Shown here: positions 19,501 to 22,500 of the stretch, piece by piece
Position numbering within the stretch: position 1 is the stretch's first letter
How the letters are laid out: each line of letters starts with the position of its first letter
Assembly: GCF_017348835.2 (NCBI RefSeq)
Contig: NZ_CP071375.1
DNA: 64,000 nt
Reading direction: 5' to 3' (one strand)
Source: Escherichia coli
Lineage (GTDB): Bacteria > Pseudomonadota > Gammaproteobacteria > Enterobacterales > Enterobacteriaceae
Made by a program: the position numbers

Positions 19501-22500
19501 TTACGGTGTATTACCTCCGCTTTGTAAAGACCATTGATGCTCTCAGCCATCGCGTTGTCATACGAGTCGCCAGTACTCCCTGTTGATGCCAGTAATCCGG
19601 CTTCCTTAAGCCGCTGCGTGTAGGCCAGCGATACATACTGAGAACCTTTATCACTGTGATGGATTGTGCCGGACGGCCGACGGGCCCACAACGCCTGCTC
19701 CAGTGCATCCAGCACGAATGTTGTTTCCATGGATGATGAGACCTGCCATCCCACGATGTATCCGGCGAACACATCAATGATGAACGCCACATAAACGAAG
19801 CCCTGCCATGTGCTTACCCAGGTAAAATCAGCCACCCACAACTGGTCTGGACGTTCTGCCACGAACTGACGGTTTACGCGGTCGCATGCGGCAACGGCTT
19901 TCCGGCTGACGGTAGTGCGGACCTTTTTACCCCGGAGAACACCGGCAAGTCCCATAACTGCCATGAGACGTGCCACAGTGCATCTGGCCACTCTGATACC
20001 TTCCCGTAACAACTGACGCCAGACTTTACGCACACCGTATACCTGGTGATTTTCATCGTATACGCGCTGTATCTCTTTCTTCAGCCAGTCATCGTGCTGC
20101 GCACGGGCACTGCGTTTATCCGGATGATGTCGCTGTTGCTGACAATGGTAATACGTTGACGGGGCAATATGCAGTTCGCTGCATACCGGTCCGACCCCGT
20201 ACTGCTCACGCAGCTTATCCAGCAGTGGCATCATTTTTTCCAGAGGCGGTCGAACTCCGCCTTCGCAAAATAAGCGGAAGCCTGGCGAAGGATATCGTTA
20301 CTGCGGCGCAGTTCACGATTTTCACGTTCCAGCTCTTTCAGACGCTGACGTTCAGCGGTGGTGAGTCCACCATCACCACTCCCGGTATCCCGCTCATGCT
20401 GGCGAACCCAGACACGCAGAGTCTCCGGCGTACAGCCAATCTTTGGGGCAATGGAACAAATTGCCGCCCACTGTGAGTCATATTCATCCTGACTTTCCAG
20501 AACCATACGAATCGCCCGCTGACGGACTTCGGGGGAAAAACGAGTATTTTTAGTCATCCTGTTTACCTCTTTCTCAGGGAGTTTAGTCTCCAGGATTTCC
20601 GGGGCGGTTCACTTCGAAGTATTCTTCGTAAGCCTTTTCCATGATTGTGTCGAAATCCATATCACTCACCTGAGTTTCTTTCCAGCCAGCGACGGGCACC
20701 ATTTTCGGTTTTAAACGTTTTGCTTTTGGTATACGTCATCGCGGTGAATGTACCGTCCTGGTTGGGAAACACGCCGTACACCAGAGATTCGTTGTTGCCA
20801 AGATCGATAGTATCCATGTTGACCTCATTTCCCCTTAACGCCGGGTAGCGGAACAAAAACCTGCTGCATAGTTATTAAAGTTGAACCCTGCCGTCATGTT
20901 CATACGCCTCGGGCTGGCTACTTACCCCCTGACCACTGCTTGGTAACTCGAAGTATTGCCCGGCGTTCTGTGGGGCGGGGTGGGTGGTTGGTGTATGTAA
21001 TCTACAATTAAAAACTGTTTTGTGTCAACAGTTTTTAATTGTTGTTTTGGGCAAAAAAATCCCTCGAAAGAGGGAGTATGAAAATTGTTCAACTCAGATA
21101 GAGAAGGGAAATTGTCGCCGAGAATGTGTCACGCTTACAATCTCAATGCTTGAAGCAGCTACTCTGTACAGGATTATGTAGTTAGGGTGGGTCACGATCT
21201 CTCTCAATCCAGAAACCCGTTCGCTTGGTGGATATAAGTACGGATGCTCAGATAGAGGTAATACCGATGTTTCAATGCGTATTTTTAGTCTACGTGCTGC
21301 CGGTGGGTTCTCCTTGGCGATGTAAGTTATGATCTGGCGCAAATCATCGCGAGCAGACGGTAGCCATAAAATGGGTAACATTACTCGCTCTTGTTAGTTA
21401 CAGCAATTTGAGCAATAAGATTTTCCATTTCAGCCATTACCTCGTCATGTGGAATTGCGGGGCGAGTGTCTGCAAGGCTTGACGTTACTTTAGTGCGCAA
21501 CCATTCGTTGTAACTGTTTTCTTGTTCGGTAGTTTCGAATTCTGAAACTATCGGAGAAAGGGCTGTACCCATGGCATAACTCCTCTTCTTGTACTGTGGT
21601 CACGCCCGGCGGCTTTTTTGTGCCGCCAGCCACCTAGCAATGGTTTCTTCCATTGATTTTTTCTTGTCTTTGATTTCTTGAAGCATTTTTTCTTGGTCTT
21701 CCTCAGGAAACGCACTAAAAGCTTGGAGCAGTTCGCGTTGGCGAGGACCAATTTTCATCGTGTCAGGGGTGAAAATTGGCTCACACTCTTCAGGAGGCAA
21801 TAAAAACCAATGCAATGGATGCCCTGAAACCTCAACCAGTTTATCCAAACTTGAGGCTTTAGGTGTAGCCTTACCGCTGACCCATTGTTGAACAGTTTGT
21901 TGTGTCACACCAATTCTACGGGCAAGCTCAGCCTGGCTCCATCCAGTTTCCTGAAGAAGCTTGCTGATTCTGTACATAGATACTTCTAGGGCGCTCATCA
22001 TTATTCAATTTTACAGGTAAATACTGTTAAAAGCATCACAATAAAAAACTGTTGATTGCATACAGTTTTTTATTGTAGTCTTTGCTTATAGTTTTTAGAG
22101 GAGGGCAAAATGCTAGATAGCACTCGCGAAAAAATTAGGCAGAAATACACTCAGGCTGAAATAGGTCGTTATATGGGGGTCGCTCAACAGACTGTTTGGC
22201 AATGGTTTAGCTTTGGCGTTCCCCCAAAGCAGGTAATTCCGTTATGCCAACTAATGAAGTGGGAAGTTACCCCGCATGAAATCCGCCCAGATATTTATCC
22301 TAACCCAACCGACGGTTTACCTGTTGGATGTAAGGTTAACACATCAAATGCGCCGGAGTTGATTCATGAAAATCAAGCATGAACACATCCGCATGGCGAT
22401 GAATGCCTGGGCGCATCCGGACGGCGAAAAAGTACCGGCTGCGAAAATTACCAAAGCGTATTTCGAGCTGGGAATGACGTTCCCGGAACTGTATGACGAC

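Follow-up and report, generated by a model that had tools for sequence, protein, structure and literature searches.

A probable paaR1-paaA1-parE1 toxin-antitoxin operon in the immunity region of a lambda-like Escherichia coli prophage

Directly downstream of its repressor gene phage lambda carries the exclusion genes rexA and rexB, and at the same position a lambda-like prophage of E. coli carries two small overlapping reading frames. What do these frames encode, and do they serve to stabilise the prophage or to exclude other phages? The locus was analysed in a window of 64 kb (64,000 nucleotides of contig NZ_CP071375.1), whose coordinates are used throughout. According to our analysis, with a probability of roughly 0.9, the frames belong to paaR1-paaA1-parE1, a type II toxin-antitoxin operon with three components. 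It would form part of the immunity region of a prophage of the lambda type that is integrated beside yccA and corresponds to Sp4/CP-933M of E. coli O157:H7. The genes of the proposed operon are the following:

21600-22001, minus strand: paaR1, encoding a 133-aa HTH_XRE repressor, CI analogue and third operon component
21381-21572, minus strand: paaA1, encoding a 63-aa PaaA-family antitoxin, acidic (pI 4.4; 11 D+E, 4 K+R)
21094-21381, minus strand: parE1, encoding a 95-aa ParE-family toxin, basic (pI 9.9)

An earlier note on this DNA had described an acidic 63-aa and a ParE/RelE-like 95-aa ORF that overlap by one nucleotide, directly follow the repressor gene on its own strand and precede the left palindromic operator. 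This layout was recovered in full: the two genes share base 21381 (1-base overlap TAATG; minus-strand junction GAG TAA TG), a 27-nt gap separates paaA1 from paaR1, and a palindrome at 21004-21042 lies beyond the pair. The span then given, 21008-21572, is right at its upper end, the boundary of paaA1, but its start falls within the palindrome and is not an ORF boundary. A ribosome-binding site, AAGAGGAG, precedes paaA1, with GAGGAG 8 nt upstream. All three frames are intact and 99–100% identical to the O157:H7 copies, and the 479-bp paaA1-parE1 pair is present at ≥99% identity in 436 complete E. coli genomes; inside the pair Rfam gave no match. The gene order repressor-antitoxin-toxin-ydfA/ydfB...dicB, with ydaS-ydaT divergent, was kept in every relative inspected.

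As the earlier note had anticipated, the 95-aa protein matched the Pfam family ParE_toxin (PF05016, E 3.2e-17, 63 bits), and it did so over its full length (residues 4–91 of 95). It has 67% identity to ParE2 of PDB entries 5cw7/5cze (127 bits to chain 5cw7_B), and the PDB search returned only ParE2 and another ParE (6x0a) as close solved relatives. The protein is identical (100%) to ECs_1067 of prophage Sp4 in strain Sakai and matches phrog_2455. The sole significant Pfam domain of the 63-aa protein was PaaA2 (PF21217, E 7e-19); this protein is identical (100%) to ECs_1068 of Sakai and shows 70% identity to PaaA2 (PDB 3zbe/5cw7). The nearest solved structures to the pair are those of ParE2/PaaA2 from E. 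coli O157 (3zbe, 5cw7, 5cze, 5czf). Because of the domain E-values (3e-17 and 7e-19) and the conservation in 436 genomes, we do not regard the toxin-antitoxin pair as a chance finding.

The ParD/CC2985-type antitoxin that had been proposed gave way to a different family: neither Pfam nor NCBIfam yielded a ParD or ribbon-helix-helix (RHH) match for the 63-aa protein, and PaaA1 is instead of the PaaA type, a small acidic protein that lacks a DNA-binding domain. The module shares with the canonical ParDE systems (RK2/RP4; Vibrio cholerae ParDE2) the toxin family PF05016, the antitoxin gene in first place and the logic of stabilising a plasmid or other element, whereas it differs from them in lacking a ribbon-helix-helix domain in the antitoxin, in leaving transcription control to a separate phage-repressor-like protein, and in that gyrase is not established as the target of PaaA-associated ParE toxins.

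The published system includes the gene for this repressor as its third component, which goes beyond the reading in the earlier note. PaaR1 carries a Pfam HTH_3 domain (E 4e-12) and no S24 peptidase domain; its match to NCBIfam DicA was below the cutoff, PADLOC gave generic HTH matches only, and the PDB search with PaaR1 found no PaaR structure, only HTH domains of the 434-repressor type (E ~1e-5). Over 132 of 133 residues it is identical to ECs_1069 of Sakai, annotated as “phage repressor protein” (P75 here, Q75 in Sakai), and ECs_1067-1069 sit in the annotated “prophage Sp4, lambda-like phage” of that strain.

The three-component paaR1-paaA1-parE1 system of E. coli O157:H7 was reportedly described by Hallez et al. 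in 2010 (Mol Microbiol 76:719). The name “system 1” rests here on secondary sources (PMC8630535, PMC4803016, PMC3141249) and on sequence identity; one of these sources spells the system “paaR1-paaA1-parE3,” apparently a slip (PMC3141249). Sp4 and CP-933M are the same prophage (PMC2884950). Both the module and its position in the rexAB slot have already been published for E. coli O157:H7, and the finding is correct but ordinary. The present copy resembles that of CP-933M/Sp4 in gene order, in the integration site by yccA and in the neighbouring genes. It differs from Sakai Sp4 in that an IS3-family element is inserted into ydfB, some 390 nt past the PL-like promoter, and in its host, a non-Sakai strain nearest to the pig isolate PE164. 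Two IS copies occur in the prophage, at 19302-20611 and 28033-29342, and PE164 (99.6–99.9% identical) has a terminase large subunit that its annotation gives as frameshifted.

The paralogous system paaR2-paaA2-parE2 (CP-933P/Sp12; Escherichia phage Evi) is where the experiments on regulation and addiction have been done, and only there (Jurenas et al., 2021; PMC8630535). In that system PaaR2 is the CI analogue, YdaS the Cro analogue and YdaT the CII analogue. The two systems are alike in the order and sizes of the three genes, in their one-base or near-overlap, in the slot between the CI analogue and OL/PL, and in the divergent ydaS-ydaT genes, with about 90% identity in YdaT and a conserved YdaT operator. 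They are unlike in the N-terminal DNA-binding part of PaaR, which cannot be aligned between them, whereas the C-terminal 98 aa of PaaR1 show 42% identity to PaaR2 (E 4e-21), and in the whole of YdaS, which is likewise not alignable with the YdaS of CP-933P/Evi. In a phage collection, megablast with the 1.25-kb region matched only flanks of about 130 nt, the type-1 module being found in no isolated phage, and tblastn with ParE1 returned one phage, Evi, with the type-2 module, in which parE is unannotated.

The module is surrounded by the following elements of a putative immunity switch:

22366-22791, plus strand: ydaT-type CII analogue (phrog_163 CII-like activator, E 4e-46)
22110-22382, plus strand: ydaS-type Cro analogue (phrog_35 transcriptional repressor, E 9e-29), divergent from paaR1
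22359-22376, no strand: predicted YdaT operator OM, TTGATTcatgaaAATCAA, at the ydaS/ydaT junction, the sole such site in the window
22002-22109, no strand: paaR1-ydaS intergenic control region holding candidate PR and PRM promoters and an OR-like palindrome (22038-22076)
21050-21075, minus strand: intrinsic-terminator-like hairpin, TCCCTCTTTCGAGGGA followed by the T-run TTTTTTTGCC, 19 nt past the parE1 stop
20999-21042, minus strand: OL-like palindrome and PL-like promoter, which reads leftward, away from the toxin-antitoxin genes

The promoter and terminator scan called neither a terminator nor a promoter between paaR1, paaA1 and parE1, and the terminator-like hairpin follows parE1. The sequence is compatible with co-transcription of the three genes under PaaR control, which is experimental for system 2 only (PMC8630535), and the transcript would end at the hairpin. 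Just beyond this hairpin lies the 39-bp palindrome at 21004-21042 (ACAATTAAAAACTGT-N9-ACAGTTTTTAATTGT, 16-bp arms), overlapped by the PL-like promoter TTGACA-N18-TAGATT, in which 10 of 12 positions match. The palindrome core AAAACTGT-N9-ACAGTTTT has only two copies in the window, at the OL and OR positions; the OR-like copy shows 78–83% identity to the OL copy and lies 1034 nt away. The scan lists the palindrome at 21004-21042 as a plus-strand terminator, a reading that we rejected as the main one because the stem is AT-rich (3 of 16 pairs are G-C), holds the PL-like -35 element and is duplicated at OR. Based on the paaR2 system, for which OL and PL have been shown (PMC8630535), we infer that the palindromes at 21004-21042 and 22038-22076 are candidate PaaR1 operators. 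In three heteroimmune relatives the two positions lie about 1 kb from each other and have another repeat in common; at the paaR2-type locus it is the published GTTTAGTAA-type repeat, in contrast to the palindrome found here.

In the paaR1-ydaS intergenic region the promoter scan called neither PRM nor PR, and the candidates given here rest on manual reading and on the OR copy being homologous to the PL copy. By its position the PR candidate, TTGATT-N18-TAGTCT, corresponds to PL as a homologue, and it stays under the threshold of the scan. The sequence TAAAAT stands, on the minus strand, 6 nt before the paaR1 ATG, with no Shine-Dalgarno sequence; this fits a leaderless paaR1 mRNA from a putative PRM just upstream of the ATG, and leaderless mRNA has been shown for paaR2 (PMC8630535). 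PL and PR both point away from the toxin-antitoxin genes, and therefore only the leftward immunity promoters can transcribe them. The OM site agrees exactly with the site published for YdaT, 5'-TTGATTN6AATCAA-3' (PMC9986795), and YdaT has about 90% identity to structures 8bt1 and 3c4r; RefSeq names the ydaS product “YdaS family helix-turn-helix protein” or “transcriptional regulator.” In the paralogue, OM is the site of a PRE-like promoter reading leftward into paaR-paaA-parE.

These elements suggest the following scenario. In the lysogen, PaaR1 would bind OR (22038-22076) and OL (21004-21042) and so silence both the promoter that reads rightward into ydaS-ydaT and the PL-like promoter that reads leftward, while a weak PRM-like promoter close before the paaR1 ATG would give a probably leaderless paaR1-paaA1-parE1 mRNA that ends at the hairpin (21075-21050). 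After infection, YdaT acting at 22359-22376 may drive a second leftward transcript across the three genes, as has been shown in the paaR2 system. PaaA1, presumably largely disordered, would wrap ParE1 and neutralise it specifically, to judge from the crystallised PaaA2-ParE2 complex, to which the two proteins are 70% and 67% identical. For the O157:H7 systems it is reported that the toxins are toxic, that each ParE is neutralised by its own PaaA and that the antitoxins act without cross-neutralisation (PMC4803016). ClpAP and ClpXP degrade the labile PaaA of system 2 (PMC8630535). If the immunity region were lost or rearranged and PaaA degraded in this way, free ParE would poison a nucleoid-associated target, probably a topoisomerase, and induce the SOS response; nucleoid colocalisation and SOS induction have been reported for ParE2 (PMC8630535). 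As an addiction device, the module would then lend stability to the prophage and its immunity region. A stabilising role, one of the two considered in the earlier note, has been demonstrated for the paralogue by post-segregational killing and by an addictive immunity region (PMC8630535), and by analogy it may extend to this copy.

The other role considered there, exclusion of infecting phages, is suggested by the position of the pair. In lambda, rexA-rexB directly follow the repressor gene, share its strand and precede OL/PL; the pair likewise occupies the slot between the CI-analogue gene and the left operator and promoter, and by analogy it may, like them, be transcribed in lysogens from the maintenance promoter. 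The same analogy has been drawn in print, where the toxin-antitoxin pair of the paaR2 system is said to replace “rexA and rexB” in position (PMC9986795). Searches of Pfam, PHROGs, NCBIfam and PADLOC found no Rex family match for the module proteins, and the analogy is one of position; Rex is a membrane-depolarising exclusion system, whereas here we see a cytoplasmic protein toxin-antitoxin pair. A Rex-like abortive infection or superinfection exclusion would require that an incoming phage trigger the lysogen-expressed PaaA1-ParE1, for example by shutting off host transcription or by causing the antitoxin to be degraded, so that the infected cell is arrested before the invader finishes its cycle and the lysogen population is protected, stabilisation being secondary. 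The transcriptional logic shared with rexAB, the lability of the antitoxin family and the retention of the module at the same position in many heteroimmune prophages speak for it, and phage defence is known for other type II toxin-antitoxin systems. However, neither toxin nor antitoxin matched a PADLOC defence model, their PHROG families are labelled “unknown function,” no report of phage exclusion by PaaA-ParE was found in the literature searched, and the authors who worked on the paralogue favour addiction and genome stabilisation (PMC8630535). We consider exclusion unlikely. It is equally doubtful that PaaA1-ParE1, besides its addiction role, is a functional replacement of RexAB that fires when a heteroimmune phage stops host transcription or depletes PaaA; if this were true, selection for defence would explain why the module keeps this slot in at least three heteroimmune lambdoid prophage types.

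An alternative to any such role is that the module is an inert passenger, a silent conserved remnant of a decaying prophage with no selective role, retained only since its deletion kills the cell. The prophage does look damaged, with its two IS copies and the terminase frameshift in PE164, and in the paralogue no ParE2 activity was seen at steady state, single-cell work having detected none in either transcriptional state (PMC8630535). However, the three intact frames and their near-identity to the O157:H7 copies count against decay, and being kept because loss kills is the addiction mechanism itself, from which this explanation differs solely by denying a benefit. We regard it as quite improbable.

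RelE and ParE toxins have one common fold, and the 95-aa protein could be read as a ribosome-dependent RNase, that is, as the toxin of a RelBE-type mRNA interferase pair and not as a ParE-type nucleoid or topoisomerase poison. The names in RefSeq and NCBIfam, “RelE/ParE family toxin” and “RelB family antitoxin,” might suggest such a pair, as might a marginal match of the toxin to NCBIfam TIGR02385 (RelE_StbE, 28.4 bits against a cutoff of 27.9) and a match of the antitoxin to NF050103 (92 bits, cutoff 50). We consider this very unlikely, given the far stronger full-length match to ParE_toxin, close solved relatives that are ParE proteins only, the nucleoid colocalisation and SOS induction by ParE2, which is not RelE behaviour (PMC8630535), and an antitoxin of the PaaA2 family without the ribbon-helix-helix DNA-binding domain of RelB.

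Overall, the paaR1-paaA1-parE1 reading of this locus is mainly a correct annotation, in which a published toxin-antitoxin system was recovered in a prophage immunity region from the sequence. Our analysis makes small additions, all of them predictions: candidate PaaR1 operators, operator repeats that appear to co-vary with the repressor type (three heteroimmune relatives), and a conserved YdaT site. The system offers the textbook example of type II toxin-antitoxin genes whose transcription is controlled by a phage CI/Cro/CII-like switch.

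The immunity region of the prophage comprises a repressor gene, two small ORFs behind it and the control elements listed below, with coordinates and, where relevant, strand.

21004-21042: OL-like palindrome of 39 bp with 16-bp arms, downstream of the 95-aa ORF (sequence analysis)
Inside 21004-21042: PL-like promoter, TTGACA-N18-TAGATT, 10/12 positions, directed leftward, away from the toxin-antitoxin pair (scan)
21075-21050 (-): hairpin resembling an intrinsic terminator, TCCCTCTTTCGAGGGA plus a T-run, downstream of the 95-aa ORF (sequence scan)
21094-21381 (-): parE1, toxin ORF, 95 aa (ORF list and raw sequence)
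21381-21572 (-): paaA1, antitoxin ORF, 63 aa (ORF list and raw sequence)
21600-22001 (-): paaR1, gene of a helix-turn-helix protein, 133 aa (ORF list and raw sequence)
22038-22076: OR-like palindrome, second copy, in the paaR1-ydaS intergenic region (similarity to the left copy)
22110-22382: ydaS-type Cro analogue, divergent from paaR1 (PHROGs match)
22366-22791: ydaT-type CII analogue, divergent from paaR1 (PHROGs match)

The 63-aa ORF begins 27 nt after the end of paaR1, with its ribosome-binding site (GAGGAG) within this gap, and joins the 95-aa ORF at GAG-TAA-TG on the coding strand, where the stop and start codons have one base in common. The antitoxin is acidic (pI 4.4; 11 D+E and 4 K+R) and the toxin is basic (pI 9.9). 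The earlier note had described overlapping ORFs of these sizes behind a repressor gene, and all of its details match the ORF list and the sequence; its start coordinate, 21008, falls in the palindrome and is not a gene end.

The profile check bore out the ParE assignment made there, as the 95-aa protein matched Pfam ParE_toxin over its full length (PF05016, E = 3e-17). The antitoxin, which had been expected to be of the ParD type, is of the PaaA type instead (PaaA2, "stability determinant," PF21217, E = 7e-19), and it scored 92 bits against NCBIfam NF050103 (cutoff 50). Among solved structures, the pair comes closest to ParE2 and PaaA2 from E. coli O157 (5cw7, 5cze, 5czf, 3zbe), with identities of 67% for the toxin and 70% for the antitoxin; PHROGs assigned each of the two to a phage family of unknown function. 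PaaR1 has an HTH_3/XRE domain, and the domain search revealed no S24 peptidase domain in it. Its C-terminal 98 residues are 42% identical to PaaR2 (E = 4e-21), and its N-terminal DNA-binding part could not be aligned with PaaR2.

In some 500 complete E. coli genomes, with Shiga-toxin-producing serotypes frequent among them, a 1.25-kb region containing the triad is 99.8–100% identical; there RefSeq names an HTH protein, a RelB-family antitoxin and a RelE/ParE-family toxin beside divergent YdaS/YdaT-family genes. In E. coli O157:H7 Sakai, the counterparts are ECs_1069, ECs_1068, and ECs_1067, within the annotated "prophage Sp4, lambda-like phage" adjoining yccA; toxin and antitoxin match ECs_1067 and ECs_1068 at 100% identity, and PaaR1 differs from ECs_1069 in one residue (P75 in the window, Q75 in Sakai). 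This residue falls in the linker joining the HTH domain to the conserved C-terminal domain, and the P75 variant also occurs in the pig isolate PE164. Sp4 and CP-933M are one prophage in two sequenced O157:H7 strains (PMC2884950), a homologue of paaR2-paaA2-parE2 is located on CP-933M (Jurenas et al., 2021; PMC8630535), and the summary of Hallez et al. given in a review also ties the triad to the published name. On these grounds we infer, as regards the locus-tag correspondence, that the window carries paaR1-paaA1-parE1. The central claim of the earlier note, that this lambdoid prophage has a ParE-type toxin-antitoxin pair where lambda carries rexAB, is right; it is also already known, having been published before nearly verbatim. 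The paralogous system, paaR2-paaA2-parE2 (system 2), is present as well in Escherichia phage Evi (LR597642.1, 3998-4276); the deposited genome has no annotation for the parE2 frame and gives paaA2 as a hypothetical protein.

The two palindromes are 78–83% identical and 1034 nt apart, and their core, AAAACTGT-N9-ACAGTTTT, occurs only in these two copies within the 64-kb window. Among heteroimmune relatives with identical gene order, a locus that shares the repressor type also shares both palindromes; the paaR2-type locus has GTTTA(A/G)TAA-type repeats common to both equivalent positions, in agreement with the published consensus (PMC8630535), and a third type, with a PaaR 65% identical, has another repeat again at the same two positions. 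The repeat pairs of the three versions (21004-21042 and 22038-22076 in the window; 2388-2411/3400-3423 and 2400-2434/3446-3480 in the relatives' loci L006 and L007) always lie downstream of parE and in the repressor-cro intergenic region, about 1.0 kb apart. Since each repressor type has its own repeat at these positions, the repeats co-vary with PaaR, as expected for OL/OR operators, and we predict from this sequence pattern that the two palindromes of the window are the operators of PaaR1.

On the coding strand, TAAAAT lies 6 nt ahead of the paaR1 ATG, and no Shine-Dalgarno sequence is present; this start region fits leaderless translation, which has been demonstrated for paaR2 and lambda cI (PMC8630535). 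The published YdaT operator, 5'-TTGATTN6AATCAA-3' (PMC9986795), has a single occurrence in the window, right at the ydaS/ydaT junction (22359-22376), and the YdaT of the window shares about 90% identity with the CP-933P protein, which has been crystallised. The immunity region is a mosaic: between type-1 and type-2 prophages, YdaT and its exact operator are kept, whereas neither YdaS nor the DNA-binding domain of PaaR is related.

The window is 99.6–99.9% identical to the prophage integrated at yccA in PE164. Two inverted IS3-family insertion sequences of 1310 bp each (19302-20611 and 28033-29342; 1306/1310 identical), both with an ALIL frameshift pseudoknot, flank the entire segment for immunity and replication, toxin-antitoxin operon included. 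A separate 3-bp target duplication borders each copy (CTT and CCA, respectively), which indicates that no inversion has so far taken place between them. The left copy is inserted in ydfB, about 390 nt past the PL-like promoter, and therefore probably cuts the early-left operon. In the early-left region by dicB, the antisense sRNA DicF was found (RF00039, 77 bits, 18058-18109, minus strand), as in Qin-type prophages. Immediately right of the second copy, a sok antisense RNA (RF01794, 102 bits, 29489-29655, plus strand) adjoins the type I toxin gene hokD, forming a second, unrelated toxin-antitoxin locus of the same prophage; PE164 also has an IS481-family element in this region. The large terminase subunit gene (about 42722-44649 in the window) is annotated as frameshifted in the 99.6%-identical PE164 record, which, with the frame read from that annotation, suggests a defective prophage.

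Several roles can be considered for the pair. Its position makes a lysogen-expressed, Rex-like abortive infection module attractive, but neither protein matched a PADLOC model and our literature search found no reports of phage exclusion by the pair; this role seems rather unlikely. That the genes are an inert passenger is improbable too; such a state is hard to tell apart from addiction. An mRNA interferase pair of the RelBE type, to which only the names in databases and an NCBIfam score near its cutoff point, is very improbable beside the far stronger ParE and PaaA2 matches.

An addiction module, as known from system 2, agrees with the stabilising role that the earlier note had proposed. There, experiments showed that paaR2, paaA2, and parE2 form an operon and that competition between PaaR2 and YdaS for operators that overlap generates a bistable switch. 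PaaR2 represses, in addition, a PL promoter lying downstream of parE2, and YdaT activates a PRE-like promoter. PaaA2, which has no domain for binding DNA, is a target of degradation by both ClpAP and ClpXP; ParE2 induces SOS and colocalises with the nucleoid (PMC8630535). The locus stabilised an unstable mini-F plasmid through post-segregational killing (PMC8630535), which, by analogy, supports this role. In the window, neither the PL-like promoter nor the PR candidate points toward the pair, both firing away from it; therefore, only leftward immunity promoters can transcribe it. The candidates would be a PRM analogue immediately ahead of paaR1 and, where ydaS meets ydaT, a PRE analogue activated by YdaT. 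The PaaR1 repressor formally belongs to the toxin-antitoxin system as a component. The authors of the work on system 2 proposed that its pair is an addiction module guarding the immunity region from loss or recombinational replacement (PMC8630535), and by homology the copy in this prophage most probably acts through the same mechanism.
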